Virus record (IMG/VR): IMGVR_UViG_3300035670_000068 | Location: 46,317-110,316 of that record | Direction: 5' to 3' (one strand) | From: a virus | DNA: 64,000 nucleotides | Shown: positions 1-54,604 of the stretch, one piece after another | Position numbering within the stretch: position 1 is the stretch's first letter | How the letters are laid out: each line of letters starts with the position of its first letter | The notes under the pieces: model-generated | The model's database searches: none | What the model was told of the DNA's origin: nothing | The model's input: only the letters and a program-made list of their open reading frames with translations | Program-made: the position numbers and the translations under genes

Positions 1-393
1 CCGCTGGTCGTCGTTGGGCTCTGTTATCCAGGTGCCGTCTGCGCCGATCTCGTCCGTGCAGACGATCCAGACCATTCTCTCGGGCTCCCAGACTATCCAG
101 GCCGACCCTAGCCTCTTGCCATATTTGGCTACAGCCAGGGCGAACACACCGTCTTTGGCTACCGGCTCTTCAACCCTTCCAATGCTGTTCTCCCAGCTCT
201 CGTAGTAGGCAAAGCCTGTGGGCAGCACCAGCACCTCGTCGGAATACTCGAACGAGATCAGGTGAGGGCTGCGCTTCAATTTGGTCAGGAAGTTCGGGGT
301 GCCATCTACGCAGACCAGAAAGGCGGTTCTATCCCGGATTTCTTCGAACGATATGGCTCTGTTGACCAGGACGTTCTGGTATTTCTTGCTCAT
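1..393 (-). CDS. Hypothetical protein, runs off the left edge of the window (MSKKYQNVLVNRAISFEE...)
   Basis: ATG at 391-393 overlaps the stop of the upstream ORF (ATGA); frame open to position 1; translated by hand. Confidence 0.7.
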   Translation of the reverse strand, partial: MSKKYQNVLVNRAISFEEIRDRTAFLVCVDGTPNFLTKLKRSPHLISFEYSDEVLVLPTGFAYYESWENSIGRVEEPVAKDGVFALAVAKYGKRLGSAWIVWEPERMVWIVCTDEIGADGTWITEPNDDQR

Positions 394-878
394 GACCAGG
401 CTCCATAGAGTCTTGGCTTAGGTGTCTTGTCAGGCACTTTGCGAGGTGGCTCTTGAGCAGGTCGAGCCTCATCCCTGGCCAGGTAAACCAACATGGCCAT
501 CTTCATTTCAAACTCTTCGGAGCAAGAGCTGATCAGCTGGGAGAAGGTTGCCCAGGCATCGTGAAAATGGTCGTGGTATTCGTTCCCGGAGCACCAGCAG
601 TTGCCTGTCCAGTAGACCTGGGCGATCACCTCTTGGTCCCGCACCAGCATGGCGAATCTCTGCTTGGCAGCCATGTTTCTCGGGACATAAACCTCGCTGA
701 TCCGGGAGTGATCTCGAACCAGCTCCACGCCTTCTACGACCGTCAACCCCTCGTCGTTTCCGATGTGTGTCGTTACCGGCTTGAGGTTCACCGGCTTGTC
801 GTAGAGGTCTTGACCAGGCTCATTGACCAGCTTTGGAATCATGGAGTGGTTGATCTTGATCCACACCACTTCACTCAT
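390..878 (-). CDS. Hypothetical protein with C-terminal YGAWS motif
   Basis: ORF track 390..896; likely start MSEVVW coupled to the upstream stop. Confidence 0.75.
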   Translation of the reverse strand: MSEVVWIKINHSMIPKLVNEPGQDLYDKPVNLKPVTTHIGNDEGLTVVEGVELVRDHSRISEVYVPRNMAAKQRFAMLVRDQEVIAQVYWTGNCWCSGNEYHDHFHDAWATFSQLISSCSEEFEMKMAMLVYLARDEARPAQEPPRKVPDKTPKPRLYGAWS

Positions 879-1405
879 GAGAAGGCTCCAAAGCACTCAG
901 GCTTTTTGACGGTCTTGATCTTGGTTGGCTTCACGGCGGTCGTTTGAGCCTTGTAGATTCGCTTCATGATCCTGGCCTGGTCTGGCTCAAGTGAAACCAG
1001 GTCTGCGAACTCTTCCCAAGCCTGCATGAACAACGGGAAGGTCTCGACCTCCTTAGTGGGCACAGCGTTCTTGCTGCCGGCGCTGACGTTGTTTACAACC
1101 CAGCAGCAGCCGTCAGTGCGGTCAGGCTCGTAGTAGATCGAAAACGAGCTCCATGAGCCTTTGGCGTTCTCGAAGCGGATCAAGGCTACCGGGTTCCAGT
1201 GCTCGTCTTGAAGCCTGTCGAACGGGAAGTCCCTGCCCTCTTCCACCTCGACGTTCACGAAGTCCCGTAGGTAGAGAATCTGGTCGCTGTCGTAAGCGCC
1301 CATGCCCTCCATGATGACCTGGTAGCCTTTTACCTCTTGGTCTTCGTTAAGCCAGGTCTCAAGCGGCCCGAGCATCAGTTCGTAGGACTTGGTGGTCATG
1401 CCCAC
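875..1405 (-). CDS. Hypothetical protein with C-terminal FGAFS motif
   Basis: 176-aa ORF in a coupled operon. Confidence 0.75.
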   Translation of the reverse strand: MGMTTKSYELMLGPLETWLNEDQEVKGYQVIMEGMGAYDSDQILYLRDFVNVEVEEGRDFPFDRLQDEHWNPVALIRFENAKGSWSSFSIYYEPDRTDGCCWVVNNVSAGSKNAVPTKEVETFPLFMQAWEEFADLVSLEPDQARIMKRIYKAQTTAVKPTKIKTVKKPECFGAFS

Positions 1406-1620
1406 TCCCCGAACGATTCAGGCTTCGGAGCTGGAATCCGGGATTGCTCGATCTTCTCCACATGGCGATCGATCGCTCGCTTCATGAGTTCGGTTTCGCT
1501 GGGTATCTGCTTCATCAGGGCTCTGACGGCGGCAGCTCCTACCTCTGGAGGCAGCGGCTTGTGCATGGCCGCCTCCCGACGCTCAACCTCTTTCATCAGG
1601 TAGTCAAAGTAGTCCGACAC
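1396..1620 (-). CDS. Small hypothetical protein with C-terminal FGEWA motif
   Basis: GTG at 1618-1620 preceded by AGAGG RBS; lies downstream of the operator/promoter at 1661. Confidence 0.7.
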   Translation of the reverse strand: MSDYFDYLMKEVERREAAMHKPLPPEVGAAAVRALMKQIPSETELMKRAIDRHVEKIEQSRIPAPKPESFGEWA

Positions 1621-1660
1621 TTCCCAATGCCTCTCTGCGTTTATTAGTAAATGGTTAATA

Positions 1661-1678
1661 ACTAACTCTCTAGTTAGT
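1661..1678. promoter_or_regulatory. 18-bp operator ACTAACTCTCTAGTTAGT next to a minus-strand -10-like CATACT
   Basis: Perfect 7-bp arms ACTAACT/AGTTAGT; member of the ~30-copy family. Confidence 0.75.
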
Positions 1679-2028: not shown

Positions 2029-2052
2029 AAAAAGCCCTCACTAGGAGGGCTT
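2029..2052 (-). terminator. Rho-independent terminator
   Basis: AAGCCCTC-ACTAG-GAGGGCTT hairpin with an A-run (U-tract on the minus strand) just after the stop at 2056. Confidence 0.7.
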
Positions 2053-2055
2053 GGA

Positions 2056-2606: not shown

Positions 2607-2682
2607 ACTCCGTTTACCCTTTCTCGCTTGTTTGTTGCTGTTGCGAGCATTTTACAAGCGAGATCGAGGCAGAAGGAGGCAA

Positions 2683-8502: not shown

Positions 8503-8680
8503 AAGTCACCCCACCATCCTTTGCGCCGATCACGTTCTTACGGAACACCGAGCGCTGTCCTTCGTCGAGCGGCCAGTCGATCTCATGACCACAGCCAGTA
8601 CACATCTTCTTGTCTTCACCGTGCAGCAGCACCAGCTCGGAGCACTTGCACTTAGGGCAAACCTTCGTCGTCATCCCCAT
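8480..8680 (-). CDS. Small Zn-ribbon protein
   Basis: CPKC...CTGC. Confidence 0.6.
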   Translation of the reverse strand: MGMTTKVCPKCKCSELVLLHGEDKKMCTGCGHEIDWPLDEGQRSVFRKNVIGAKDGGVTYGACNPA

Positions 8681-8829
8681 GTCCCATACTTGCTTTTGAC
8701 TTCAAACTCTTCGAGCTCGGCGATGCCGTCCTCGATCTCCTGCAGTTCGTTGGCCCTGGCCTGCAGAACGCCGGCGAGCTCGGTCAGAACGAACTTGCGC
8801 AGCCGCTCTTCGAACGGCGGAAGGCTCAC
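8671..8829 (-). CDS. 52-aa protein missing from the ORF track, ends in YGTWG
   Basis: Translated by hand: MSLPPFEERLRKFVLTELAGVLQARANELQEIEDGIAELEEFEVKSKYGTWG; GTG start overlaps the upstream stop, GAGG RBS; fills the gap between neighbours. Confidence 0.75.
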   Translation of the reverse strand: MSLPPFEERLRKFVLTELAGVLQARANELQEIEDGIAELEEFEVKSKYGTWG

Positions 8830-9038: not shown

Positions 9039-9451
9039 TGCGCCGCCAGGCTTACGGAGATCGACCAGGTGTCGCCCTGGAGCAGCAGCTGCTTGGTGTC
9101 CAGGTCTACACCGCCGCAGTCATGACCGAACGAAGCAACGACCGTGTGGTTGTCGCCGCTCTTCGAGAAACTGAGGTGAGTCAGCTCGATCACGGTGCCG
9201 GCGTCGAAGTCACCCAGGAAGGGCTGAACGCCTTTCTCTCGGCTCAGCTCTTCGACCAGGCTCAGCGCCTCGATATCGGAGAACTTGAAGGTCTGCTTGT
9301 TGCCTGCCTCGTTGGGCACGAACAGCTTCTGGAAGGCTTCCTTCTCAGCAGTCCGGCCCTTGAAGATGATCTTGCCGCTGATCTCAGCAGGCCGGCTCTG
9401 GGTCGCAACCCGGAGTTGTCGTTTCTGTCGCATATTGGCTCCTATGACCAT
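9035..9451 (-). CDS. Hypothetical protein
   Basis: 138-aa ORF. Confidence 0.65.
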   Translation of the reverse strand: MVIGANMRQKRQLRVATQSRPAEISGKIIFKGRTAEKEAFQKLFVPNEAGNKQTFKFSDIEALSLVEELSREKGVQPFLGDFDAGTVIELTHLSFSKSGDNHTVVASFGHDCGGVDLDTKQLLLQGDTWSISVSLAAQ

Positions 9452-9723
9452 GTTCCAAATTCTTGAGGTCTACTGACCTTCTTGACTTGCTTCGGCCTCG
9501 ATTCGAGGTCGCTGTTCTCAGCCAGGCTGTCGTATTCGTCCAGCGCCATCAGATCGACCTCCTTAGCCTTCTCCATCATCGTCTTGAAGGCCTCGATGGC
9601 TTTCTTCTCCTGCATGGCTTTCATGACAGCCTCATAGGCTTCCTTCTCCACTCCGAGCTTTTCGATGGAATCGATCAGCTCGGGCATACTGGAGAAAATG
9701 CTTTTGCCTTTCCCTCGCATCAC
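9442..9723 (-). CDS. Hypothetical protein with C-terminal FGTWS motif
   Basis: 93-aa ORF. Confidence 0.7.
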   Translation of the reverse strand: MMRGKGKSIFSSMPELIDSIEKLGVEKEAYEAVMKAMQEKKAIEAFKTMMEKAKEVDLMALDEYDSLAENSDLESRPKQVKKVSRPQEFGTWS

Positions 9724-10168: not shown

Positions 10169-10810
10169 TCAGCTAAAAGACCCGAACCCTGGAACGCTGC
10201 TGGGAACGCTCTCTGAGCGCGTTTCTGTCTGAGCGCTACGCTTGCGCGTAATCGACTGGAGAACGTCACTAGCGAGCGTTTTGCGCGCTTCCCGACGCTG
10301 TTCCTGATCGACTTCTGCAGACTCGCGAACGTATCTGTCGCCGTTGTCCAACCAGGACAGATTGATCGACCATTCAAACTGGCTTCGCCACTCCCAGCGA
10401 TTCATTTCGACCTCTGCATAGGCTTCTGCCATGTGCAGCGGCCAATTGTTGACCTTCGCCATGTGCTTGAGCGTGGGTTCCAGGAAGCCCATGCGCGCAG
10501 CGTTGCCGATATGCTTAACCCGGTGGCAGCTCGGGCAAAGGCTGATCAGCCCGGTCAGGGTCTGGACCTTTTTGTCGTCGTCGTAGTGCCAGATTTCATG
10601 GCACTCGACAGGGTGCTTCTTCCCTACCCCGCCGCAGATTTCACAGCGATGACCGGCGTAGACAAAACAGGCTTTCTTGAGCAGACCCCACTGACTCTCT
10701 GTGATCCTGGCCCGCACGTTGTCGAACCACTGACCGAACGGGACCAGCTCGATGGTCAGCCTGGGCGGATCGAAGGGTTCGAATGGGTTTTCAGCGATCA
10801 TATTTGTCAT
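10169..10810 (-). CDS. HNH-family endonuclease-like protein with C-terminal FGSFS motif
   Basis: CEICG...ECHEIW...LCPSCHRVKH. Confidence 0.8.
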   Translation of the reverse strand: MTNMIAENPFEPFDPPRLTIELVPFGQWFDNVRARITESQWGLLKKACFVYAGHRCEICGGVGKKHPVECHEIWHYDDDKKVQTLTGLISLCPSCHRVKHIGNAARMGFLEPTLKHMAKVNNWPLHMAEAYAEVEMNRWEWRSQFEWSINLSWLDNGDRYVRESAEVDQEQRREARKTLASDVLQSITRKRSAQTETRSESVPSSVPGFGSFS

Positions 10811-11063: not shown

Positions 11064-11300
11064 TTACGACCAGGAGCCTACAACTTCGGATTCGGTCTTC
11101 ACGGCCTCTTCCTCTGCTGGCTTGTCTTCGATCAGAGCCAGCACATGCACCCGCCCGGCGATGTAATGCCAGTCGTGCTTGTAGCCGGTTCGCTTGGTTT
11201 CGGCAGCACAGTAGTCTTCTGCCTCCTGCTTGGACATGGCGAAGAGACCCATGCTCTTGCCCCGATCAAACACTTCCTGGTCACACTTTTCGGTACTCAT
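11064..11300 (-). CDS. Hypothetical protein with C-terminal VGSWS motif
   Basis: 78-aa ORF. Confidence 0.7.
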   Translation of the reverse strand: MSTEKCDQEVFDRGKSMGLFAMSKQEAEDYCAAETKRTGYKHDWHYIAGRVHVLALIEDKPAEEEAVKTESEVVGSWS

Positions 11301-12250: not shown

Positions 12251-12853
12251 TTACAACACCGGAATCAACGGATCAGATATCACCAAGTTAGTGCCATCAG
12301 TCATGAAGTTAGCCGGATTCTGCAGGTCAAGAAGAACATCGTGGTCGCTCTTCTCGATGTAGTCGGATATCGCCAACAATGCCCAGGACACCGATGCCGA
12401 AAACATCCTTGAAGCCGTCAGGTCTTTCAGCGCTCTCGCATGGGAAAACTTGCCCAACTCCGGCTTCTCTCCAAGCTCGCGCGCTGCAAGCCTGAAATCA
12501 ACTGCGCTGGCTACGGCTTTACTCTCCAGAACCATAGTTTCATTTTCCCACTTATCCAGCGGGCGCAACTTGACCACTTCCAGCAGAGATATTTGACCGT
12601 AGTCCTGGCAGTTGAAACTTCCGTAGTCGTTCACCAACTTGGGAACACCTGGCACTCCAGACTTCAAACGAACAAAGTCTGGATATACCGGGTCGCAAGT
12701 TAGTTTGAGAACCGTATTGTCGGTGCATTCGTAGACGATTGAATAACAGCCGCGACCGACAATTTTCTTGCCGGTCAGAACTGGAAACTTCTCAATAATC
12801 AAATCCCGGTCTGGGTCGAATGACTCAGTGCCGGATTCACCGAATGCCATCAT
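12251..12853 (-). CDS. Protein-kinase-like protein (resembles T7 gp0.7)
   Basis: Gly-rich loop GRGCYSIVY, VLKL, catalytic loop DLQNPANFM, ISDP. Confidence 0.65.
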   Translation of the reverse strand: MMAFGESGTESFDPDRDLIIEKFPVLTGKKIVGRGCYSIVYECTDNTVLKLTCDPVYPDFVRLKSGVPGVPKLVNDYGSFNCQDYGQISLLEVVKLRPLDKWENETMVLESKAVASAVDFRLAARELGEKPELGKFSHARALKDLTASRMFSASVSWALLAISDYIEKSDHDVLLDLQNPANFMTDGTNLVISDPLIPVL

Positions 12854-13344
12854 TACGACCAGCCCCCGATATTGATGCCTTTCGCGCTCGCTGCTTCCAG
12901 GAGCTCTTCGTCAACATCGATGGCCAGCTCCTTCATCACCGGCGCCAGCTCGTTGCCCTCTTCAACCAGCACCATTTCCCCGTCCTCGTCTTCGTCGAGG
13001 TAGGAGCCTGTGTATTTCAGGAGAACGTCTTCATAGGCAGCCATCGCTGCAGACTTGGTGCGGAAGGTTTCGGTGGCGCCGTGATCGATCACCCAGCCCT
13101 TGTCTTCCAGGACACTCTCTTCCTCCCACTCGCTCTTGCGAACCTGGAGGCGGGTGCGAACGAAGATGCCGTGCGAATGCCGGTATTCGGCGGGGAGCTT
13201 CTTGTCGTAGCGACCGATCCACTCAACCGCGATCCAGATGCGGTCGTTGCGGAACTCTTTGATGATCCAGTCCTTGCAGTGGCTCTTTTCCTCCCACTGC
13301 TTCTTCGACAGGCCTTTGCCGTCAATGTCCTGGTAGATGAACAT
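12853..13344 (-). CDS. Hypothetical protein with C-terminal IGGWS motif
   Basis: 163-aa ORF downstream of the operator at 13363. Confidence 0.75.
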   Translation of the reverse strand: MFIYQDIDGKGLSKKQWEEKSHCKDWIIKEFRNDRIWIAVEWIGRYDKKLPAEYRHSHGIFVRTRLQVRKSEWEEESVLEDKGWVIDHGATETFRTKSAAMAAYEDVLLKYTGSYLDEDEDGEMVLVEEGNELAPVMKELAIDVDEELLEAASAKGINIGGWS

Positions 13345-13521: not shown

Positions 13522-14100
13522 CTAAATGCCAACAAATTGACAGGGCTTGTCGAACATGCCGAACTCGATGCCGTTCCAGTAGGCTTTTTCAAGCACCTCA
13601 ACGTCGTAATCGGCGGCGTGAGCAGCATCCGGGTCGTAATCAACGCCAGTTGCCCAGCAAAGCTCTCTCAGGTTCGGAACCTTACCGAACCCGGTAGATG
13701 GTCGGCCTTTCAGCATCGTATCGAACACCTTGATCGGCGGCACTCGATAGCCCAAACGAATCAACTCCAGGGCGATGAAGGGTGCGTCAAAACCTTCGCC
13801 ATTATGGGCGACAAAAATCTGACACATGGACATGATCTTGTGGACCTTCGGGGCAACATCCTCCCAAACCGGGCAGCCACGCAGGTCAGTGATCGAAATC
13901 CCATGCACTGCTTGAGCGCCTGGATCGATATCACGCATGGGGTTGATACGCTGATTCCAGGTCGAGCCGACCTTGCGCTTATCGCCCGTCGCCGGGTCGT
14001 ATTTCCAGACACCGAAAGCTACTTCGATGATGCGGTGGCCGGACTCCTGGCTCAAGCCAGTGGTCTCGATATCGCCAACGCAGATGTTGATGGTGCTCAT
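13522..14100 (-). CDS. DEDDh 3'-5' exonuclease (DnaQ/epsilon-like)
   Basis: DIETTG, AHNGEGFD, HAADYD motifs. Confidence 0.9.
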   Translation of the reverse strand: MSTINICVGDIETTGLSQESGHRIIEVAFGVWKYDPATGDKRKVGSTWNQRINPMRDIDPGAQAVHGISITDLRGCPVWEDVAPKVHKIMSMCQIFVAHNGEGFDAPFIALELIRLGYRVPPIKVFDTMLKGRPSTGFGKVPNLRELCWATGVDYDPDAAHAADYDVEVLEKAYWNGIEFGMFDKPCQFVGI

Positions 14101-41096: not shown

Positions 41097-41668
41097 TGAT
41101 TGCCCCTTACTACAAAGCAGCCATCTTGCTCCAGGATGATCCCGAGCTTCTGAACTGCCGCGATAACAATCGACGCCTGGGAAGACGCCGTTCCGTTGGT
41201 GTAATCGAACGCTCGCTTCAAAGCCTCGATGAAGGCCTGGCGAGTCGTTGGGCCGGCGATCAGCAGATCGAACAGAACCTCGACAGTCGCTGGCTTTTGA
41301 CCGCGCATCGAGTTCACACCGGCGAGCAGACTCTTACGATGGTTGACCCCCACCTGGATCATCGCTCGCGCTGTGCGGGCCGCATGATTCGGCAGGCTGG
41401 AGATCAGGGCCTCGACTGCTTCTGGCAGTTTTGGCTTGTTGCTGGCGGCTTGTTGAGCCTTCTCTTCACGCTTTGCGGCCTTTCTCTTGACCGCCTCTTC
41501 TTGCATGAGCTTTACCAAGCTGTCAGTTCCGACAATCTGCGACAGCTGGGCAATGGATTCTTTGGCGGCTTCTCCGCACGCCTCTTTGTAGCTGCAGGTT
41601 TGGCAAACCTGGGAGCGCACGTTGTAGGTCACTGCAAAACCGAAACAACCTGGCTTTTCAAACTGCAT
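41093..41668 (-). CDS. Cys-cluster / winged-helix protein
   Basis: PGCFG...CQTCSYKEAC; GTASSQ. Confidence 0.65.
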   Translation of the reverse strand: MQFEKPGCFGFAVTYNVRSQVCQTCSYKEACGEAAKESIAQLSQIVGTDSLVKLMQEEAVKRKAAKREEKAQQAASNKPKLPEAVEALISSLPNHAARTARAMIQVGVNHRKSLLAGVNSMRGQKPATVEVLFDLLIAGPTTRQAFIEALKRAFDYTNGTASSQASIVIAAVQKLGIILEQDGCFVVRGNQ

Positions 41669-42295: not shown

Positions 42296-43513
42296 TCAGC
42301 CGAAGATACGCTTCGCGATACCCAGCGCTGCTTCACGCTCTGCATCCGGCAGGCGGTTGGCGTAGGCGTACTGCACGCCCTCAACGAAGTCACCCTTCAT
42401 CATGCCGACGCGAGCCATGTTGATCGCTACACGCGGGCCGATGGTCAGAGACACTTGGTTCGGGAACGCCTTCACGCGAATCTCGTCAGCGAACTGGCGA
42501 ATCTTCTTGGCGTCGTCAGCGTGCAGACCAGTGGCTGCGCTGATCATCGCGACTTCCTGCTTCTCTGGCGGATAGTCCACCTTCGCTACCAGGCCGAAGC
42601 GCTCGATGGTCGCAGCGTCTTGCACCAGGGTCGCTTGATACAGGCCGGTCTGGTCGCCAGTACCGTTGGTGTTGCCGGTTGCAGCGAAGCAGAACAGCGG
42701 GTGCGGCTTGATCATGCGCAGATGGGCCGGAGCGTTCTTGATGATCAGCGGCTCACCTTCGAGGATCGCTTGATAGGCCGACAGGACGGTCGGGCTGGAG
42801 CGGTCCATTTCGTCAGCCAGGTAGAGCCAGCCGTTCATCATTGCCAGCGGCAGCGGGCCAAGCTCGAACTCGGTGACGCTGATCGCATTGCCGTTCACGT
42901 CGATGTGCTTCTTGACCACCCACTGACCGACGATGTGGCTTTCTTCGGTATCGACAGTGTGCTGGAAGCGGAACAGACGACGGTTGGTGCCTGCGCAGAT
43001 TTGCTTGAACACAGAGGACTTGCCGACGCCCGAGTGACCGTACAGGAAGATCGGCGAGCGCAGCTCAAGGCCCATCATGATGGTCTTGGTGAGTTCCGGG
43101 TTCAGGATGTAGTTCTCGTTCCACTCCGGGACCAGGTAGTCGTGCTCGTCGGAGCGGTTGTCGCGGCTGATCGGGATCGGGTTGCCGGTCTTGGTGAAGG
43201 CCGACTTGGTGGATTTCGGGAAGCGGAAGGCTTCGTGGAAGAACACCTTCTCGATATCAGCGTGACCGCTTGCAGCCGGCTTGGCAGCAGGTGCAGCTTC
43301 TTCACCGCTAGCAGCCTTCTCTTTCTCTGCGCGCTTTTCGCGGGCGATGCGCTCAGCGGTTTCGCTCAGCAGCGTGGCTTCCGGGAAGCGCTCGCGATAC
43401 TCAGCCAGGGTGCAGGTTTCGCTCGCACCGTCGCCGTGTGCGGACTTGAGGTGGGTTGGGATGCTGTGTACTTCTTCGCCACAGATTTGGCACTTGATCT
43501 TATCGGTAGACAT
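42296..43513 (-). CDS. CobS/MoxR-like AAA+ ATPase with N-terminal C2H2 Zn finger
   Basis: CQIC...HLKSAH; GHSGVGKS; ADEMD; ATGNTNG.GD; DAATIERF. Confidence 0.88.
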   Translation of the reverse strand: MSTDKIKCQICGEEVHSIPTHLKSAHGDGASETCTLAEYRERFPEATLLSETAERIAREKRAEKEKAASGEEAAPAAKPAASGHADIEKVFFHEAFRFPKSTKSAFTKTGNPIPISRDNRSDEHDYLVPEWNENYILNPELTKTIMMGLELRSPIFLYGHSGVGKSSVFKQICAGTNRRLFRFQHTVDTEESHIVGQWVVKKHIDVNGNAISVTEFELGPLPLAMMNGWLYLADEMDRSSPTVLSAYQAILEGEPLIIKNAPAHLRMIKPHPLFCFAATGNTNGTGDQTGLYQATLVQDAATIERFGLVAKVDYPPEKQEVAMISAATGLHADDAKKIRQFADEIRVKAFPNQVSLTIGPRVAINMARVGMMKGDFVEGVQYAYANRLPDAEREAALGIAKRIFG

Positions 43514-43607: not shown

Positions 43608-45755
43608 TCAGGCGGACATGAGGGCATCGCGCAGCTGATTCAGGACGATGCCTGGCAGCTCTTCCACGTTGTCCAGCTTGACGTTCTTGCGGTAGAAGTG
43701 GGACACCGAGTCGGAGCAGATGCCGATGCCGACGATGTTGGTGCCTTCCTTCTCGATGCGGGCGACGGTCTGCTTCAAGTGGTTGTTCAGCTTGGAGCTC
43801 GACACGCTCGCAGCCGGCATACCATCGGAGAAGACGATCATCATCTTGCCTTTCGGCTTGCCCTTGTTCGCGGCTTTGCACAGCCGTTCGTAGGCGTACT
43901 GCACAGACTCGCCATCGACGTTGTTCTGGAGCGCACCGCGAATGTGGTAGTACGAGGCCATCCGCTTCTTCTGCTCAATGCCGAAGCGTTCGTCGAAGGA
44001 CTTGAACACTGGCATACGGATGGGCTCGGTTCGATCCCAGCTGCGACCGTGACTCCACTCGTCGCTCAGCTCCCGATACAGCTTGCGGCCTTCGTCGCTG
44101 TCGTAGTCGCCAGTAGTGAAGCCGATCACTTCGTTCGCCACGCCCAAGCGAGTCAGAACCTCGCTCACTACCCAGGCCGCGCACATGGCGGTGAAAATCT
44201 TCCGCCCTCTCATGGAGCCAGAGCAGTCAACCACCAGGGAGACGGCAACGTCTCGGGTGCGGTGCTCGATCTTCTTCTTGAAAATCTTGTCGTCACCGGC
44301 AGTCAGGCGATAGAGGTTGTTCGCGGACATTTTCCCCTTGTTCTGACCCTGCTGCCAAAGCGACTTGTTGCGCGCAGTGAAGGCACGCTCCAGCTGACGT
44401 GCGACCGGGCCAACCATACCGTCGATAGCCTTCTCGATCTCGGTCATCCAGGCAGGGCTGTAGCTGCTAGGGATTTTCGGGGGCTCGATCTGGTCCCACT
44501 CGCGGGTAAAGATCGTGTAGGTCTCGTTCTCCATTTCGGAGGTACACAGCTCAGTGACGTGCTGGGCGAACTCGGTGCCCATATCCTGAACCTTGTTCCA
44601 GTCGAACTCGGCCAGCATCGAGGCGCCGCCTCGCTCGGACTGGATGACCTCTTCGTCTTCTTCCATGTCCTTGCGCTCGGACTGGTCGGAGTGACCGTCA
44701 GCGCCTTCTTCGAGCTTGTGCGGCTCGTCGTCGGACTCTTCATCGTCAGACTTGCCTTCGGCTTCTTCACCTTCGTCTTCCGACTCTTCGCCCTCTTCCT
44801 CGCCTTCCTCGCGCTCTTCGGGGGCCTCTTCGCCCTCTCCTTCCTCACCGGAAGAGCCTTCTTCGTCGCGCTCTTCCTCTTCACCAGAGCCACTGCCAGA
44901 GCCCTTACCGCCCGAGCTCGAACCTTCCTCTTCTTCGTCAGATTCGCCCGAGCCACCGCCCTCCCCTTCTTCGCTACCAGCGGGAGACTTGTTCTTGCGA
45001 CCGCTGGAACGCCCGCCAGCAGCTTTCATTCCGCCCTTGCCCTTGCCGCTCTTCGACTTGTTCTCGTCGCCGAACGGGTTGTGACCGTCGCCCTCCAGGG
45101 GCTCGCCTTCTACGACGTTGCGAATCTGCTTCGCCATTTCGTAGGCATCTTCGGGCTTGGTCATGCTGCCAATCTTGGAAGCAATCGGGTCGAGCTCCTT
45201 CTGGATGCCGGCGATCAGCGACCACTTGTCGCTCATGTAGTCCTTGAAGAACTCTTGACCGCCCCAGGCGCGCAGAGCGGGAATCGCGAGCACCTGGAAC
45301 AGCTGCTGCTCACTGGCGCCGTTCGCGAGCGCTTCTTTCAGCTTGGGCTCGATGAACTTGTCCACGAAGGCCTGGTGCATGTGGTTCAGGTTCTGACGCG
45401 AACCCGGAAACGCCTTCGTCATGCTCTTTTCACAGAACAGCGATTCGATGGGCTTGTAGATGCCTTCCAGCTTCTCGTACTTGGAGCGCAGAGCAGAGCG
45501 CGGGTCTGCGTATAGAACTTTGGCGATCTCGCCATCCAGGAAGCCCTGAACGGCATCGATCAGCTCGTCGGAGGCGTCGTCCGGGATCATCGGGAGATTG
45601 ACTCGCGACGGCTTCATGGTGTGCTCGTCGTACTTGACGAAGGCCTGAACACCGGCCTGAGTCACAGAAACTTTGTCGTCGGTCAGGATTTTCGCGATCT
45701 TGGTGATCGATTCGCGAATCACCTGGATGCGCTTGGCTTTGGCGCTGCTGCTCAT
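43608..45755 (-). CDS. CobT-like protein with acidic linker and C-terminal vWA (MIDAS) domain
   Basis: VDCSGSM MIDAS, NVDGES, FSDGMP, VGIGI; long E/G/S-rich linker. Confidence 0.88.
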   Translation of the reverse strand: MSSSAKAKRIQVIRESITKIAKILTDDKVSVTQAGVQAFVKYDEHTMKPSRVNLPMIPDDASDELIDAVQGFLDGEIAKVLYADPRSALRSKYEKLEGIYKPIESLFCEKSMTKAFPGSRQNLNHMHQAFVDKFIEPKLKEALANGASEQQLFQVLAIPALRAWGGQEFFKDYMSDKWSLIAGIQKELDPIASKIGSMTKPEDAYEMAKQIRNVVEGEPLEGDGHNPFGDENKSKSGKGKGGMKAAGGRSSGRKNKSPAGSEEGEGGGSGESDEEEEGSSSGGKGSGSGSGEEEERDEEGSSGEEGEGEEAPEEREEGEEEGEESEDEGEEAEGKSDDEESDDEPHKLEEGADGHSDQSERKDMEEDEEVIQSERGGASMLAEFDWNKVQDMGTEFAQHVTELCTSEMENETYTIFTREWDQIEPPKIPSSYSPAWMTEIEKAIDGMVGPVARQLERAFTARNKSLWQQGQNKGKMSANNLYRLTAGDDKIFKKKIEHRTRDVAVSLVVDCSGSMRGRKIFTAMCAAWVVSEVLTRLGVANEVIGFTTGDYDSDEGRKLYRELSDEWSHGRSWDRTEPIRMPVFKSFDERFGIEQKKRMASYYHIRGALQNNVDGESVQYAYERLCKAANKGKPKGKMMIVFSDGMPAASVSSSKLNNHLKQTVARIEKEGTNIVGIGICSDSVSHFYRKNVKLDNVEELPGIVLNQLRDALMSA

Positions 45756-45822
45756 GCTTGAGACTCCTGGTTGTGTTTAATCGCCTAGTAACTAAGCGCT
45801 TCGTTAGTATGATGCAGAAATA

Positions 45823-45847
45823 GAAACGGGAGCGCAATGCTCCCGTT
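45823..45847 (-). terminator. Rho-independent terminator
   Basis: AACGGGAGC-GCAAT-GCTCCCGTT. Confidence 0.6.
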
Positions 45848-45864
45848 AGGCCAACCGCTAATGC

Positions 45865-46050
45865 CTATAAGGCGATGACAGCTGCGCCAGAGTCAGCGTC
45901 CAGCTCGTTCAGAACCACCAGGCTGGCGTTTCCTTCGTCACCGCTCGTCTTGAAGATGGTGAGTCCACCAAGATGAAACTCGCCAGCAGCATTCTCCAAG
46001 AGATCAAGGGCGTCCTCGTAGGACACCTTGTTTACGCACAAGCTCATCAC
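45865..46050 (-). CDS. Small hypothetical protein, divergent from the repressor
   Basis: 61-aa ORF with GGAG RBS. Confidence 0.55.
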   Translation of the reverse strand: MMSLCVNKVSYEDALDLLENAAGEFHLGGLTIFKTSGDEGNASLVVLNELDADSGAAVIAL

Positions 46051-46340
46051 TTCTCCATAGCCCTTCTATGGGGCTTCCAGTTTCAGCTGATTGCTTCGAT
46101 GTGAAGCGCTACGCATTTTGACAGATCGCCCAGCAAGTAACTAGATGGTTAGTTGCTGGGGATAGCGAAATCCATAACGAACCCCCTATCTGTGTGAAGA
46201 ATGGTAGCAATGAGCCAGCGGGCGATTCAAGCGGTGACACCTGTAACAAATGTGAAATTTTTGGTCCGATATCGGGTTGACAGGCGACGAATGACCTTGA
46301 TTTTTCTGATTTTTTCCATTTTTAGGCTTTGGAACCTGTG

Positions 46341-46393
46341 ATTCATTGATTAGTTAGTCACCACGCTATATCTTTACTAAGCCCTTAGTTAGA
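46341..46393. promoter_or_regulatory. Two 18-bp operators upstream of the repressor gene
   Basis: ATTCATTGATTAGTTAGT (46341) and ACTAAGCCCTTAGTTAGA (46376). Confidence 0.65.
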
Positions 46394-46457
46394 CCCTACA
46401 GGGCTCACAATAATAGAAAGCACTAAGCTGAACCAGAAAACTTGTGGAGAAAATGCG

Positions 46458-46994
46458 ATGACCAACACCAGACAAGCCCGAGTAGTCTTCAAAAGCGAGA
46501 CTGCAGACCTGGTACGCCAGATGATCGATGCTCAGGTTCGCAAGAACCAGGACGAGATCGCGAAGGAAACCGGGTTCGAGCGCTCGAACGTACTGACCAT
46601 GATCAAGCAGGGCCGTACCAAGATGCCGCTCGACAAGATCGAGGCTTTCGCAAAAGCGTGTGGTCAGAAGCCCGACAAATTGTTTCGTACCGCCATGCGT
46701 GAATACAACCCGGTCGTGGCCAGACTGATAGGCACCATCTACAAAACCCCGATGTTCGAAGGCGCCGAAGATATCGTGCAGACCTTCAACGAAGCCCTGA
46801 CCGAAGCCCTGACCGAAGCCAAGCGCGAGCACCGCGATGCAGCTGCAAGCCCGAGCGATGCGGCTCAAGTGCTCCGACTGAACGCCTCCCTGGATATCTC
46901 GGGTAGCAAGAAGGCGGACCTAAAACGGTTCGTAAAAACCAATTTGGTGAAGGTGATGGCAGGCGATGAAGAGGTTGCTAAGTTCACTTCCTGA
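46458..46994 (+). CDS. XRE-family HTH repressor
   Basis: KNQDEIAKETGFERSNVLTMIKQGRTKMPLDKIEAFAKAC; divergent from the lytic operons. Confidence 0.85.
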   Translation: MTNTRQARVVFKSETADLVRQMIDAQVRKNQDEIAKETGFERSNVLTMIKQGRTKMPLDKIEAFAKACGQKPDKLFRTAMREYNPVVARLIGTIYKTPMFEGAEDIVQTFNEALTEALTEAKREHRDAAASPSDAAQVLRLNASLDISGSKKADLKRFVKTNLVKVMAGDEEVAKFTS

Positions 46995-47010
46995 TACCAA
47001 ACCAGGACCG

Positions 47011-47042
47011 AAAGCCCGCTTCTAAACAGAGCGGGCTTTTTT
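47011..47042 (+). terminator. Rho-independent terminator after the repressor
   Basis: AAAGCCCGCT...AGCGGGCTTTTTT. Confidence 0.8.
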
Positions 47043-47111
47043 ATGCGCGCCTGTCAGACTTGCGCGTAGCTGCGATTTCTACCAGAATCGTGAAAACGGC
47101 AGCTACGCCGT

Positions 47112-48341
47112 ATGAAACGAAATCAACAATCTGGGGGAGTCATGACCGAGATCGGTAATGAAACTGAGCTGCTGGCTATTGAGCAGAGTATGGGCACAAA
47201 CAACGCCGGTCTGTTGTTTGAGCAGTTTGCCATAGACGGCAACGCAGACCTGGATGCAGCCAGAACCCTTATCACCCACCCAGAAGACCGCAAGAAAGCT
47301 CGCACCTGGGGCATCAACGAAGCGGCCCCGATGATTGGGCGCTCTATCAGCTATATCCGTCAGAACGAAGCCGACAGTGTAATCCGGGATGAACAGGGCC
47401 GCTGGCACTTCACACTGGGCGATATCAACCGTCTTCGCGAAAAGTACGGCACCCTCTACAAGCGCCCAGCCGGCTCCAAGGCTATGGTCCTCGCGATCAG
47501 CAACTTTAAGGGCGGCGTAGCCAAGACCACCACTTGCATTCACCTAGCTCAGAAGGCCGCGATGGAAGGTCTTCGCGTCCTGGTTGTCGACCTCGATCCG
47601 CAGGCCTCGACCACCTTCAACATGGGCAGCGTGATCCCGGATATCGAAGTAGGCAAGCGGGACATTATCAACGACTCGATGATCGTTGACCCGCAGATGA
47701 TCCAGACGGCCGTCGTTCACACCTACTTCCACAACATTCACCTGATCCCCTCGAACCTGCACCTGCAGGAGCTCGACGTTGTTTTGCCCAATGCGGAAGT
47801 CAACAACAGCGCGCAGCTTGGCCACCCAGCTTATCGCCTGGCCAACGCCCTGGATGTGATTCGCGAGGACTACGACCTGATCATCCTGGACTGCGGCCCG
47901 AACATGGCTTCGGTTTCGGTCAACGCAATGACCGCTTGTAACGGCCTGATCGTTCCGCTTCCCCCACAGACCTTCGACCACGCCTCTTTCGTGATGCTCA
48001 GCTCTTCCCTGGCCAGCTACTTCAAAGCGACAGGCAAGGAGCTGGACTACCTGCGTCTGCTGATCACTAAGCATCCGGGTAGCCAGAGCAAGGGCGCTGC
48101 GCTGATCGAGCAGAAGATTCGCCGCATGTATGGCAGCTACGTCCTGAACAACGTGGTCAGCATGACCGCCGAGATTCAGAAGGCCAGCTCTGAAATGTCC
48201 ACTGTGTACGACCAGGCTGCAAACAAGAACAGCCGTCGTACCTACCAGCGCGCAATCGAAATCCTGGACGCCGTGAACAACGAGATCATCGGCGACCTCA
48301 AGATCATCTGGGCGCGTCAGGCTCGGGAGGCAGCTAAATGA
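47112..48341 (+). CDS. parA: Type Ia plasmid partition ATPase ParA/SopA
   Basis: N-terminal HTH, FKGGVAKTT deviant Walker A, VDLDPQAS, ILDCGP. Confidence 0.95.
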   Translation: MKRNQQSGGVMTEIGNETELLAIEQSMGTNNAGLLFEQFAIDGNADLDAARTLITHPEDRKKARTWGINEAAPMIGRSISYIRQNEADSVIRDEQGRWHFTLGDINRLREKYGTLYKRPAGSKAMVLAISNFKGGVAKTTTCIHLAQKAAMEGLRVLVVDLDPQASTTFNMGSVIPDIEVGKRDIINDSMIVDPQMIQTAVVHTYFHNIHLIPSNLHLQELDVVLPNAEVNNSAQLGHPAYRLANALDVIREDYDLIILDCGPNMASVSVNAMTACNGLIVPLPPQTFDHASFVMLSSSLASYFKATGKELDYLRLLITKHPGSQSKGAALIEQKIRRMYGSYVLNNVVSMTAEIQKASSEMSTVYDQAANKNSRRTYQRAIEILDAVNNEIIGDLKIIWARQAREAAK

Positions 48342-49330
48342 TCGGGAACGAAGAAGAGAGAGCCCCCGGAGTCTTCGGCATTTTTGCCCAGGAGATTCAA
48401 CAGGGGCAGCCCCCGAAGGGCGGAAAAGGACTCCAGAAAGTCCACAGAGATTTGCCGGCCACTGCGCCGGTTTCTGTCATTACGCCGCCCTCCCCTACCG
48501 TCAAGCCGAAGCCTGCTCAGAAGGTAGAGGCTGATGCTTCGGACGATACGGTCTATCTGCTCGACCCGAATGACATTGAGCCCTGGGCCTTCGCAGACCG
48601 TCCCGAGCATGAGTTCGGAGACCTGACGAGCCTGACCGAGAAGATTCGCGTTCACGGCCAGGAAGTCCCTGCTCTGGTTCGTCCAGGCAAGGTGAAGGGC
48701 AAATACGAGCTGATCTACGGTCGCCGTCGCTGGACCGTCTGTAAAGACCTGGGTATCAAGCTCAAAGCCTTCGTCCGCTCCATCGATGACCAGGAAGCAC
48801 ACGCTCGGATGGTCATCGAGAACGAGCGCGACCCGGTTTCTACCTGGGCGAAGGCCATGAACTACAAGAAGGTCATCGAGGCCGGGGTCTACCCGTCCGA
48901 GTCTGCTCTTGCTGCGAAGCTGGGCATTCACCGGGCGTCCCTGAGCAACATCATGGCCTACAACCGCATTCCTGAGCCCGTCGTTGAAGCTCTCGGCCCT
49001 CAGTGTATGTCCGGGATGGGCATTCACACGGCTAAAGCGATCCTGGCCGCTTCGAAGTCGCCAGAGGACGTTGAAGTCCTGGTCAGCAACGCGAACAAGA
49101 TCGTCTCTGGCTCTTTGACTGGCGACAACATCCTCAAGCTGGTCAACAAAGCGAAGGAGTCCAAGCCTCGCGAGACCAAGATCGTCACCGACGACAGCGG
49201 CCGCAAGCTGTTTTCCCTGCGTACAACGGGTCGCGGCATGACCGAAGTGATGTTCTACCAGGAAGCGGTCAAACAGTTCGGTGGCGACGAAGCCTTTGTT
49301 AGTAAAATCAAGGGGTTATTCTCTAAATGA
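48338..49330 (+). CDS. parB: ParB/RepB/Spo0J partition protein
   Basis: GQEVPALVRP, YELIYGRRRW, ENERD, HTH. Confidence 0.93.
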   Translation: MIGNEEERAPGVFGIFAQEIQQGQPPKGGKGLQKVHRDLPATAPVSVITPPSPTVKPKPAQKVEADASDDTVYLLDPNDIEPWAFADRPEHEFGDLTSLTEKIRVHGQEVPALVRPGKVKGKYELIYGRRRWTVCKDLGIKLKAFVRSIDDQEAHARMVIENERDPVSTWAKAMNYKKVIEAGVYPSESALAAKLGIHRASLSNIMAYNRIPEPVVEALGPQCMSGMGIHTAKAILAASKSPEDVEVLVSNANKIVSGSLTGDNILKLVNKAKESKPRETKIVTDDSGRKLFSLRTTGRGMTEVMFYQEAVKQFGGDEAFVSKIKGLFSK

Positions 49331-49344
49331 GAATCATTCTCTCA

Positions 49345-49434
49345 ATGTTGTACCCCCTACAACATGGTCCCTGGTCGATGTTGTACCCCCTACAACATCT
49401 ACCTGGACCCCCAATGTTGTACCCCCTACAACAT
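49345..49434. repeat. Three identical 21-bp palindromes ATGTTGTA-CCCCC-TACAACAT, candidate parS
   Basis: Copies at 49345, 49378 and 49414, immediately downstream of parB. Confidence 0.8.
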
Positions 49435-49489
49435 CGAACTGAGACCCCTCACCCGCTAGACCGAAACCCACAAGACACCAACCACACAG

Positions 49490-49514
49490 AACCCGCCCCC
49501 AGGCGGGTTTTTTT
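49490..49514 (+). terminator. Rho-independent terminator after parAB/parS
   Basis: AACCCGCC-CCCA-GGCGGGTTTTTTT. Confidence 0.75.
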
Positions 49515-50777
49515 ATGCCTGGAGAAAAGTGCATGAAGAGCCGGAATGTTATCTGCTCACCGCAAGCGCTTACTTATCTGAAAGATCGGAAAGAGTTTCG
49601 AATCGTCCCTGCTCCAATCTGGCGTCATGTTCAGATGAATGACCAACTCAGTATCGAGAGCCGCTTTTTGTGGGGAGTTCTATGGGAACTCTGCGCGCTG
49701 GAAAAAGATTACGAGCGCCGACTGACTTGGGGTTTTCTGAGCAAGCGTCTTGGTAAGAGTGAGTCGTCGATCAGACGGTGGGCTCGCCAACTTCAAGCTG
49801 ACGGATATTTGCAGGTCACTCAGGTATTCAACAAAGACGGCGGTCAACTTCCGAGTGTTTTCAGAATCGGCGTACCGAATGGAATTGCTCAAGAGATCGC
49901 AATGAACTCTCCAGATCGGCGCGTGAAAGTAATTGAGCCTGAAACTTCCGACACTGAATCGGCAGATCAGATTCCGGCGTGTGTTGAACCTGATGAACTT
50001 GGTTCGGCTTCTTCGCAAGAAGATCGGCGCGAAGATAACGGTTCGATCATGAATGCCGAAATTGAATCTAGTGCGCCGACTTCTAACGATCATGTTTCGG
50101 ATTGCGGCGCAAAACAGCGCGAGGAAGTTCAAGCGCCGGAATTTCGATCAGCTGGCGGCGTTCATGCCGAAATTACAGACAGTGACTCGAATGCGCCGGC
50201 GTATCGCGCCGAATCTCAGACAGCGTGCATGAAAATCGGCGCAGAAAATGGCACCTCTAGACTGCAATCGATCTTGTCCAAGGACAGAAGCAGGGGCGGG
50301 AAGGGGTCTGGGAGCTCGCACAATGCGAGATCGGAAGAAAAACGTCTCGACGTACAGGGTCAACCCGGATCGTCGTATGAGCGCGAAATTGAAGAGATCA
50401 GGAAACGGGCTTTGAAGCTCGAAAAAGAGGGTCAGAAGAGGGCAGGGGAGGGGGCTTTCAAAGTCGAGCTACCCCAGGGTTTCAAATCTGGCACCCAAAA
50501 CAAAGATTCTTCTGAGCAAGTAAATAACAACAACACCCCCGCGAATGTGGATAGAACCATGCTCAGGGTGAAAGGCGAGCTGCAGAACAAAATCGGAATC
50601 GGCGGCCAGATCGACAAGCTCGCGAAGGAGTTCACCTTCGCGATCCTGTTTGGGGCTTTCAAGAAAATGGAGTTTGCTAAGGCGATCAACGTGGGGGTGA
50701 AGCTAGTGCGCGAAGGTCGTTGGCAGTCTCCGCGCTACTCAATCGATGGTCAGACGGTGTGCGTTCTCAATGGTTAG
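49515..50777 (+). CDS. Putative replication initiator with N-terminal winged HTH
   Basis: LTWGFLSKRLGKSESSIRRWARQLQADGYL; position after parABS; internal DNA repeats. Confidence 0.65.
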   Translation: MPGEKCMKSRNVICSPQALTYLKDRKEFRIVPAPIWRHVQMNDQLSIESRFLWGVLWELCALEKDYERRLTWGFLSKRLGKSESSIRRWARQLQADGYLQVTQVFNKDGGQLPSVFRIGVPNGIAQEIAMNSPDRRVKVIEPETSDTESADQIPACVEPDELGSASSQEDRREDNGSIMNAEIESSAPTSNDHVSDCGAKQREEVQAPEFRSAGGVHAEITDSDSNAPAYRAESQTACMKIGAENGTSRLQSILSKDRSRGGKGSGSSHNARSEEKRLDVQGQPGSSYEREIEEIRKRALKLEKEGQKRAGEGAFKVELPQGFKSGTQNKDSSEQVNNNNTPANVDRTMLRVKGELQNKIGIGGQIDKLAKEFTFAILFGAFKKMEFAKAINVGVKLVREGRWQSPRYSIDGQTVCVLNG

Positions 50778-53043: not shown

Positions 53044-53681
53044 TGGGCTTCCTTCATTGCTTGCATGGCTTGAGCCCGACGCTTCGCGAACGCCAGCGGG
53101 CTTTCACCCGGTTCCGGCTTGAGAGCGAGCGGGGCAGGGGAGGGTTTCTTTTCTTCCTTCATCAGCACGTTCACCAGGTCAGCCATCCCCTCAGTGACGT
53201 ACCCGTCTGCAGGCTTGGGCTTCTGGGCCGGGTTCTTGAACGCAGGCTTGTGCTGGACGGCTTTGCGACCAGACTCTTGATCAGACTTTTTGGTGGAGCC
53301 GACCTGCGCCCATCCCCGTGCGTAACTCGGGTTGTTCAGGTCGTACTTGCCAGAGCTGACGGAGAGGGCAGAGGCCTGAGCCTCAGTCTCCGACCTGGTG
53401 TTGGCCGGGTTGATGTTCGTGCGTTCCTTGAAGTACAGCGCCTTGCCCGCAGCCTTTTCCTCTGCGCGCATCTTCTTGGCCGGGCAGGTGTCGTGAGTAC
53501 AGGCCCGCTGGCATTCGATGAACTGGTCACTCTTGATCCGGTTCTCTTCGATTGCGGTGATGGTGTGCAGACAGACCGCATAGCTCGCGTGAGCCCCGCG
53601 CGTGTCGCAGAAGTGGTAGAAGGCGTTGCGCCCACTCATGCTGTCCTTGAGCGGGTGAATGATCTCGGCTTGTTCGCTCAT
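53040..53681 (-). CDS. Cys-rich hypothetical protein
   Basis: 213 aa; SMSGRNAFY..C...YAVC...C...C...CPA. Confidence 0.7.
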   Translation of the reverse strand: MSEQAEIIHPLKDSMSGRNAFYHFCDTRGAHASYAVCLHTITAIEENRIKSDQFIECQRACTHDTCPAKKMRAEEKAAGKALYFKERTNINPANTRSETEAQASALSVSSGKYDLNNPSYARGWAQVGSTKKSDQESGRKAVQHKPAFKNPAQKPKPADGYVTEGMADLVNVLMKEEKKPSPAPLALKPEPGESPLAFAKRRAQAMQAMKEAQ

Positions 53682-53779
53682 AACGAACCTCTCTGGTTTA
53701 GGTTTTGTTTAACTAACTGCTGAGTGAATTATAAGCGCACTTGAAAGGGAAGTGCGCTTATCCGTTTGGCGATCGATCG

Positions 53780-54604
53780 TCAGCCAAACGCACCCCAGGC
53801 CGAGTAGACCTGCTCAGGCATCTTCACCTCTTTCACCGGCTTGGCTTCTTTGGGCGCGTAGACTCGGGAGGCGGTATAGACTTCGCCAGACGCCTCGTCG
53901 TCGAACCCTTTGCTGGAGAGGGTGGCGGTCAGAAGACTTCGAACGGCCGGCAACATCACCGAGAGAGTCATGTTCTCGGTTCTTTCTACGCCTACCAGGT
54001 AATCGGCTTCTTTCAGAGCCTGTTCGAGCAGACCAGCGCGGCTGATTCGACGGATCAGTCCCGAGACTACGGGGTTCGCCATCATGCTATTCGCGATCTT
54101 CTCACCAACTTCCTCGAAGCCGTTTTTAGCGACCATATCGCGAAGCTCGCCGGTGCTGATGCCAAGCTGATGAATCGCCACGTCTTTCTTGTGAAGCTCA
54201 GAGCACCAGGACTGGTTTCGATTCCATCCGGTTTCGCGACCGCAGTAGGCGAGGACTTCGTAGCCTTTGGCAATCACCTTCGAGCCAACGGTCGCATACC
54301 ACTGCTGTGAGGACTCGGCTTTCACGTTGACCTGGCCGGGTAGACCGGGTTTGCGGTTCCACCAGGTAATGCTGACGCCGTTCATCGAGCTGGAGTTGGT
54401 CGGCAGGAAGATCGACTGCCAGGACTTGCCCTCAGAATGAGTACAGATGATGGCCGATATTTCGAGCGAGACCACGTTGATCTCGGAAACCACCGTCTTG
54501 TGCAGGTAGTTCTTAACATTGTCGCCGACGCTCAGGAAACCAGGCGCGACCTCACGGTCGTAATCTGGAAGGTCTCGACTCGGGAAGAGAGGGGTAAATT
54601 TCAT
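53780..54604 (-). CDS. Hypothetical protein with C-terminal WGAFG motif
   Basis: 274-aa ORF following the operator at 54614. Confidence 0.72.
   Translation of the reverse strand: MKFTPLFPSRDLPDYDREVAPGFLSVGDNVKNYLHKTVVSEINVVSLEISAIICTHSEGKSWQSIFLPTNSSSMNGVSITWWNRKPGLPGQVNVKAESSQQWYATVGSKVIAKGYEVLAYCGRETGWNRNQSWCSELHKKDVAIHQLGISTGELRDMVAKNGFEEVGEKIANSMMANPVVSGLIRRISRAGLLEQALKEADYLVGVERTENMTLSVMLPAVRSLLTATLSSKGFDDEASGEVYTASRVYAPKEAKPVKEVKMPEQVYSAWGAFG

Follow-up and report, generated by a model that had tools for sequence, protein, structure and literature searches.

A conserved C-terminal tag on unrelated proteins of a Nickievirus-related phage and its relatives

We analyzed a 64,000-nucleotide stretch (the window; bases 46317-110316) of the complete 110,316-bp virus record IMGVR_UViG_3300035670_000068, in which many unrelated proteins end in the same short peptide, hereafter called the tag or tail. 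In function, its closest described counterparts are the toolbelt motifs of DNA sliding clamps, namely those bound by the beta clamp and the tails of T4 gp43, gp55, and gp33 that bind gp45. There too, unrelated proteins carry one short hydrophobic peptide, often C-terminal behind a flexible stretch, that fits one pocket of a hub, and T4 gp43 ends in FLFG, with a small residue after an aromatic one. The phage tail differs in having no Gln or aliphatic pair, in its invariant Gly, and in being carried mostly by small orphan open reading frames (ORFans). In letter pattern and register, the closest match is the tail of the ribosomal P-stalk (MGFGLFD-COOH). The register F(-5)-G(-4)-x(-3)-F(-2)-x(-1)-COOH is identical, and the P-stalk tail also follows a flexible linker and docks in hydrophobic pockets of its partners. 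However, the P-stalk has one tail in many copies read by several partners, whereas here many proteins carry the tail, and bacteria have no such stalk tail. This resemblance is one of pattern only, without homology.

Two further systems resemble the tag in architecture. In SspB-type ClpXP adaptors, a flexible linker connects the body to a short conserved peptide at the C-terminus, which docks the protein on one machine; this peptide is LRVVK-like in SspB and differs from the phage tag. Unrelated encapsulin cargo proteins carry a short terminal hydrophobic-Gly-x-hydrophobic peptide behind a linker rich in Pro, Ala, and Gly, which is read by a shell protein with the HK97 fold, as also found in phage capsids. 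Encapsulin peptides use Leu, Ile, Val, and basic end residues, and the tagged phage proteins, unlike a cargo of this kind, are encoded outside the structural genes. A last likeness is the Ku-binding tail of XLF (KKPRGLFS-COOH), which combines a basic-Pro stretch with Gly/hydrophobic-Phe-Ser-COOH and has a von Willebrand factor A (vWA) domain as its reader; the phage encodes a vWA protein, CobT. XLF is a single eukaryotic client, however, and its similarity to the phage tag may be chance. The tag falls under the definition of none of the clamp motifs, the P-stalk tail, the SspB adaptors, or the encapsulin peptides, and our literature searches found no description of it. It is a real, conserved C-terminal tag maintained at the peptide level, and an undescribed variant of a known principle.

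Terminal enrichment of the motif in related genomes

Fourteen of the 160 proteins in our own gene call of the whole 110-kb genome, about one in eleven, end exactly in [FYWIVLM]-G-x-[WF]-[SAG]. Twelve of these termini lie inside the window, and all 12 read as they had been listed in the initial annotation, each with a stop codon directly after it. The other two, FGAFS and YGTWS, have their stops 652 and 167 bases before the window. Within proteins, the same pattern occurs 12 times at 32,560 positions, a rate that predicts about 0.06 motif termini (binomial P = 3.7e-29) and agrees with the earlier estimate of well under one by chance. The motif had been described as always exactly terminal, and we found no copy displaced by 1-7 residues from a protein end in this genome. 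Among non-gene frames of at least 50 residues, 3 of 907 have the motif ending.

The tagged proteins are 52-274 residues long and acidic to neutral in charge, matching the remaining proteome. All-against-all BLASTP found their bodies to be unrelated except for four tandem genes (genome positions 45664-47715) with weak mutual similarity (E = 2e-5 to 1e-2). The initial view that the bodies are unrelated was therefore right in general but not for these four weak paralogues, and the set as a whole does not have the alignable bodies of a paralogous family. The tagged genes are confined to the early and replication part of the genome, some of them at conserved spots directly after the primase gene, sbcC, and dnaQ. 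None is structural and none is a core replication protein; DnaE, DnaQ, DnaB, primase, the single-stranded DNA-binding protein (SSB), RecA, SbcCD, ligase, and CobS/CobT are all untagged, as the initial annotation had noted for the replication enzymes. Searches of the tagged proteins against Pfam, PHROGs, and NCBIfam returned only an HNH endonuclease and two PHROGs families of unknown function.

We compared the phage with eight whole genomes: Pseudomonas phage nickie, three uncultured IMG/VR genomes (G001-G003), the Rhizobium phages RHph_X66 and RHph_N1_10, Stenotrophomonas phage ANB28, and SSU5. Of the named phages, the Nickievirus phages that infect Pseudomonas syringae are nearest (DnaE 64% identical); DnaE identity is 42-45% for the Rhizobium phages RHph_X66, B1VFA, and RHph_N1_10, 43% for ANB28, and 37% for the SSU5-like phage-plasmids. 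The same gene caller, based on codon-usage log-odds and non-overlapping open reading frames, was run on all genomes, and tails were counted with strict patterns. The ending of our phage recurs in G001 (9 of 133 proteins, P = 1.9e-18), G002 (12 of 172, P = 1.6e-25), and G003 (13 of 156, P = 2.4e-28). Nickie has tails on 11 of its 157 proteins, typically G-x-W-[AS] (P = 4.1e-24), and two more have Ala at -5. ANB28 ends 13 of 167 in [FY]-G-x-W with no residue after it (P = 2.0e-20). The Rhizobium phage tails generally read N-[FY]-G-[RA]-F; typical ends are P-N-[FY]-G-R-F in RHph_N1_10 (8/166, P = 5.2e-11), often with a Tyr nine residues ahead of the last Phe, and [FY]-G-x-F in RHph_X66 (7/156, P = 3.9e-10). 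SSU5 had a weak variant (GWATW, TWATW, and EAGAF; 3/125) that was marginal at P = 4.0e-3. The scan proposed in the initial annotation thus found tails enriched across the nine genomes, only marginally so in SSU5.

When 64 Nickie-like tails were aligned on the Trp/Phe, Gly was invariant at -2, F, Y, I, W, or M stood at -3, and A, S, or G followed the aromatic residue. The sequence [KR]-P-[ED]-x very often precedes, so that many tags have the fuller form [KR]-P-[ED]-x-[FY]-G-x-[WF]-[SA] and the motif reaches 9-10 residues. The pentapeptide first described therefore gives the core correctly for this phage, and the five-residue end is present in all 12 listed proteins, but it understates the length of many tags, and its final small residue is dispensable in related phages that end on W or F. 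This last residue is a feature of the lineage.

A second end-tag was observed in the Rhizobium phages, where 28 of 156 (RHph_X66) and 19 of 166 (RHph_N1_10) proteins end in Ala-Ala against about 2 expected (P = 2e-24 and 1e-13, respectively), recalling the AA ending of ssrA that is read by ClpX. The bearers include ligase, 5'-3' exonuclease, RecA, SbcC, RuvC, DnaQ, CobS, and rIIA; their genes use all four Ala codons and occur with and without gene overlap. Such ends are absent from ANB28, nickie, G002, and G003 and mildly raised (5-6 each) in this phage, SSU5, and G001.

Conservation of the peptide, gene overlap, and modular gain

The 96 tagged proteins of the nine genomes form 64 sequence families. 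In three of these, encoded after dnaQ, sbcC, and the primase gene, respectively, all five orthologues (5/5) keep the tail, with identities of 0.78-0.84 over the last five residues versus 0.12-0.57 over the preceding fifteen. The suggestion that orthologues would keep the tail while the linker diverges was thus correct, and tails are kept among orthologues that are 24-60% identical. The HNH endonuclease (10169-10801) is tagged only in this genome (1/5): its four orthologues, of 178-184 residues, have no tail, and the protein here extends beyond them by a linker of about 30 residues plus the tail. Elsewhere, a Mu Gam-like protein of nickie is tagged (FGHFS), as is a WGR-domain protein encoded after the primase gene in RHph_X66 and RHph_N1_10. 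The tag is gained and lost as a module. Strictly terminal, placed behind a variable linker, kept in orthologues, and found on unrelated proteins, it bears out the proposal of selection at the peptide level. It has the properties of a short linear motif (SLiM), being short, situated in a variable and flexible region, conserved in orthologues, and convergent on unrelated proteins.

The tail could instead be a by-product of gene overlap, arising from the ribosome-binding site or start of the next gene or from tuning of termination and re-initiation. Tail genes do show ATGA overlap with the next start (7/14, versus 18% of other genes), their last codon is mostly GCA or TCA before TGA, and GGA or GGG encodes the Gly at -4 in 67% of the 64 tails, compared with 17% genome-wide. 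In sequences such as ..GGA GCC TGG TCA TGA, coding is dual: the following gene starts at an ATG that overlaps the stop, and the tail Gly codon is also its ribosome-binding site. However, 25 of the 32 genes with ATGA overlap are tailless, and three tail genes are separated from the next gene by 64-98 nt. The initial annotation had singled out the genes at 10169 and 53780 as uncoupled, and they are indeed followed by gaps of 68 and 98 nt. The latter encodes the conserved post-primase protein, which ends in WGAFG or WGGFA in all five Nickie-like genomes through GGT, GGC, and GGA codons. More generally, tail codons vary (four Gly codons, TTC/TTT, and all three stops). Ribosome binding involves neither the Trp/Phe nor the aromatic residue at -5, and related phages end directly on W or F. 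Translational coupling shapes the choice of the Gly codon, not the peptide, and it fails as a full explanation; gene overlap as the origin of the tail is largely refuted, and we give it hardly any credence.

A proposed shared receptor and candidates for it

A receptor shared by all tagged proteins is the most economical reading of the tag, since its presence on unrelated proteins and its retention in related phages make an address label read by one partner most likely. We favor, with a probability of roughly 0.55, a C-terminal docking motif read by one phage-encoded receptor, probably of the replication/recombination module; binding, a single receptor, and its identity are what we infer. The core is aromatic/aliphatic-Gly-x-Trp/Phe, to which this phage adds one small residue and the free carboxylate. 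Often [KR]-P-[ED]-x stands before the core, or a Tyr lies some six residues upstream, and the motif ends a linker that is variable and flexible. Its two aromatic side chains would insert into a hydrophobic pocket of the receptor. The tail would then serve as a plug-in label, and any protein acquiring it would be held at the shared receptor. Such a receptor would be kept across the Nickievirus, Rhizobium-phage, ANB28, and SSU5 group and would most likely belong to the DnaE-based module, thereby concentrating accessory and host-takeover proteins where phage DNA is handled.

This module is T4-like in make-up but centered on a Pol III alpha subunit (DnaE), with DnaQ, DnaB, primase, RecA, 5'-3' exonuclease, SbcCD, RuvC, ligase, and a gp32-like SSB (PF08804, E = 7e-23), along with ribonucleotide reductase, thymidylate-synthesis genes, and a sigma-like factor. 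The phage also encodes CobS (AAA_5) and CobT (CobT_C vWA, residues 492-710). A reader from the replication/recombination module is favored because the wording of the tail shifts by lineage, because some tagged genes are fixed beside the primase gene, sbcC, and dnaQ, and because the few annotated tagged proteins act on DNA ends. Nickie-like phages add a small residue, ANB28 has YGxW, and the Rhizobium phages have NFGRF; such lineage-specific wording fits a phage-encoded reader that co-evolves with its clients.

Several observations weigh against the favored explanation. Almost all tagged proteins are ORFans that match nothing in Pfam, PHROGs, or NCBIfam, so that what ties them to DNA metabolism is gene position and three annotated proteins. 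Many of them occur in one genome only, in arrays of small genes, a pattern that also suits rapidly evolving proteins directed at the host and linked to a protease, unfoldase, or packaging route. Such lineage-specific small proteins would be equally in keeping with a role as adaptors for, or substrates of, an unfoldase or protease (CobS/CobT among the candidates), and less so with a capsid-loading signal. Every conserved phage protein is present in all tagged lineages, so that gene distribution points to no reader, and no receptor was found among the candidates examined (clamp, HslV-like peptidase, conserved unknown proteins, and phyletic profile).

In the phyletic profile, the presence or absence of all proteins across the eight relatives set apart only PhoH and a 191-residue protein encoded upstream of dnaE, both of which are missing from SSU5. 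Because the SSU5 group has its own variant of the tag, this absence singles out no reader. The 191-residue protein (41093-41668, minus strand), whose stop overlaps the dnaE start, is found in all relatives except SSU5 and combines an invariant N-terminal P-G-C-F-G-F...C-x-x-C...C (Cys4) with a C-terminal winged helix. The winged helix rules it out as a clamp, and from its predicted make-up it is probably a DNA-binding regulator and no obvious hub. Its N-terminal K-P-G-C-F-G-F loosely resembles the tail motif. A 246-residue protein encoded between PhoH and DnaB (59517-60257, minus strand) is present in all nine genomes at 25-68% identity. Its AlphaFold model is confident and all-helical (predicted local distance difference test score, pLDDT, 86.5), which rules it out as a hidden clamp; Foldseek gave no match at E of 0.001 or better, and the best VIA-align match, the KaiA C-terminal domain (Z = 5.4), is below the level that is meaningful for helical bundles. 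PDB sequence searches with three conserved unknown proteins returned nothing.

A different machine would be involved if the tail were a degron or an adaptor tag that delivers its bearer, or a target held by the variable body of the bearer, to an AAA+ unfoldase or protease. Candidates for this role are host ClpXP, Lon, or HslUV, or the phage CobS (a MoxR-type AAA+ protein) with CobT. The layout of body, flexible linker, and short C-terminal docking peptide is that of SspB, which docks on ClpX through its C-terminal peptide. Constant tails on fast-changing bodies, arranged in arrays of small genes (eight consecutive tagged genes in ANB28 and five in a row in this phage), point the same way, and the Ku80 vWA domain, which binds the XLF tail, offers a parallel for CobT. 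CobS and CobT are encoded in every tagged lineage, where their role is enigmatic; this distribution neither supports nor excludes them as readers. On the other hand, we know of no degron or ClpX-binding peptide that resembles the motif, some tagged genes are conserved at fixed spots beside replication genes, and the HslV-like peptidase is excluded by its distribution. We regard delivery to an unfoldase or protease as possible but unlikely. More doubtful is a specific form of this idea, in which the tagged proteins would be a phage adaptor family whose rapidly diversifying bodies each grip a separate host factor, such as a defense protein, and whose constant tail hands them over to one machine, possibly CobS/CobT. 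If true, this would give the CobS/CobT AAA+/vWA pair, found in many tailed phages, its first client-recognition code.

The C-terminus of CobS itself (42296-43513, minus strand) reads RIFG in this phage, KIFG in SSU5, RVFGS in ANB28, and RVFGGAAA in RHph_X66. The form [KR]-[IV]-F-G, shared by this phage and SSU5, is a conserved aromatic end that is unlike the tag.

The HslV-like peptidase was ruled out as reader because ANB28 carries 13 tails without the gene, while Vibrio phage vB_VaS_L1 has the gene without tails. In our first genome set, where the gene appeared to follow the tails, it was present in this phage, G001, and RHph_N1_10, weak in RHph_X66, absent from SSU5 and ANB28, and annotated in nickie. 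In this phage, the HslV/proteasome-like gene lies outside the window at genome positions 36969-37442 (minus strand). Phages of many unrelated groups have homologues (325 phage records), and in vB_VaS_L1 the gene is located just upstream of the major capsid gene in the head-gene region.

We also considered that the tail is a capsid-targeting peptide and that tagged proteins are packed into the head and injected with the DNA. As in the encapsulins, a linker and a short terminal hydrophobic-Gly-x-hydrophobic peptide are found on many unrelated proteins, and early delivery would suit DNA-end or anti-defense proteins such as the Gam-like protein of nickie. However, no tagged gene lies in the structural module, the charge of the tagged proteins (acidic to neutral) matches that of the remaining proteome, and SSU5 has only weak tails even though its capsid protein is 52% identical. 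A literature search found no virion proteomics for this phage group. Overall, a capsid-targeting role seems quite improbable.

Finally, the tail could bind the host beta sliding clamp as an unusual clamp motif and thereby assemble a toolbelt of phage proteins on it. The phage encodes DnaE and DnaQ, and a clamp of its own was undetected: neither PF02916 (gp45-type) nor PF00712 (beta clamp) matched the 110-kb genome, even with E allowed up to 10, a search that a very divergent clamp could escape. In each of the seven genomes that were aligned (7/7), DnaE (37722-41096, minus strand) has retained a clamp-binding motif near residue 918, DQxELLPG or DQxELM, where E. coli has QADMF. With this ordinary motif kept and no detectable phage clamp, the phage DnaE probably uses the host clamp through the canonical motif. 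Clamp motifs are often C-terminal, and other phage proteins use the host clamp (PMC11139829, PMC12867686). Nevertheless, the tail has neither the Gln nor the aliphatic residues that define the pattern Q-phi-x-[LM]-(x)-[FL], in which Trp is disfavored and its substitution for the final Phe weakens clamp binding (PMC11139829). The 64 Nickie-like tails follow neither Q-phi-x-[LM]-[FL] nor Q-phi-x-[LM]-x-[FL]; they have no conserved Gln, and G, A, T, or S stands directly before the W/F. The phage's own DnaE uses the ordinary motif, and the wording of the tail shifts between lineages though the clamp pocket is conserved in proteobacteria. We therefore consider binding to the host clamp decidedly improbable. 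A complex prediction of the tail region of the protein at 28406-29128 with the Pseudomonas aeruginosa beta clamp, the phage SbcD, and the CobT vWA domain scored 0.02 (mark 0.32) and counts neither way.

Tagged genes of the window and significance

The window has a G+C content of about 57%, the record carries direct terminal repeats, and nearly all genes, including all those tagged in the window, are on the minus strand. The first tagged protein (186 residues; genome 46149-46709) has its N-terminal part at window positions 1-393 and its tail, PKPSSYGTWS, 167 nt before the window. It is followed by genes for proteins of 162 residues (390-878; tail KTPKPRLYGAWS, ending in YGAWS, with tail codons at 393-407 and a TGA stop that overlaps the next ATG), 174 residues (875-1399; KKPECFGAFS), which is a weak paralogue of the protein encoded upstream, and 74 residues (1396-1620; PKPESFGEWA). 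A 52-residue open reading frame at 8671-8829 ends in KSKYGTWG. The initial annotation had pointed it out, and its 55-residue orthologue in G001, tagged with SNYGKWA, shows that it is a real gene. The 92-residue protein at 9442-9720 ends in SRPQEFGTWS before a TAG stop, with the next start 8 nt downstream.

The HNH endonuclease (10169-10801; 210 residues; phrog_5200 at E = 7e-49 and Pfam HNH) carries the added linker and the tail SVPGFGSFS. A 78-residue protein (11064-11300) ends in ESEVVGSWS, and its orthologues end in SDWA, SPWA, and GIWA. The acidic, conserved protein of 163 residues encoded after DnaQ (12853-13344; phrog_5241) ends in INIGGWS, and [IALV]GGWS is kept in 5/5 orthologues at 57-60% identity. 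This most conserved tagged protein is the neighbor of a DnaQ (13522-14100, minus strand) of only 192 residues that ends in CQFVGI and lacks the C-terminal alpha-binding extension of E. coli epsilon. A 131-residue protein (15113-15508) ends in LGIGMFS, with orthologues ending in GMGAFA and GAGAFA.

Two tagged genes follow sbcC. The one directly after it (28406-29128; 240 residues; KVENFGTWG) has 5/5 orthologues tagged, with FGGWA or FGEWA, at 24-31% identity. The second (27616-28341; 241 residues) ends in KYPIGMFG, and the endings of its positional counterparts in nickie, G001-G003, and hairong are IGGWA, IGMFG, IGEWS, and IGSWS. The largest tagged protein, of 274 residues, is encoded directly after the primase gene (53780-54604) and ends in YSAWGAFG; its WGAFG or WGGFA ending is also present in its orthologues on further IMG/VR loci, while an IMG/VR search with this protein as the sole query returned no loci. 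Among the replication genes of the minus strand, a plus-strand block of four genes (46458-50777) forms a break, and a relative elsewhere, an XRE-type regulator in RHph_X66, exists only for the first of the four. DNA of this phage is listed in subsurface and wastewater metagenome sequencing runs, and no RNA run is listed.

The tag brings together, as one system, dozens of functionally unassigned proteins in each genome. Its range covers phages and phage-plasmids of roughly 100-120 kb from Pseudomonas, Stenotrophomonas, and Rhizobium, with a weaker form in enterobacteria. A synthetic tail peptide is a ready bait for the shared partner in a cultivable member such as nickie, grown on Pseudomonas syringae. 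Finding the reader would give many ORFans a working context at once, and it could reveal how accessory proteins are organized in a DnaE-based phage replisome that has no clamp or tau subunit of its own.

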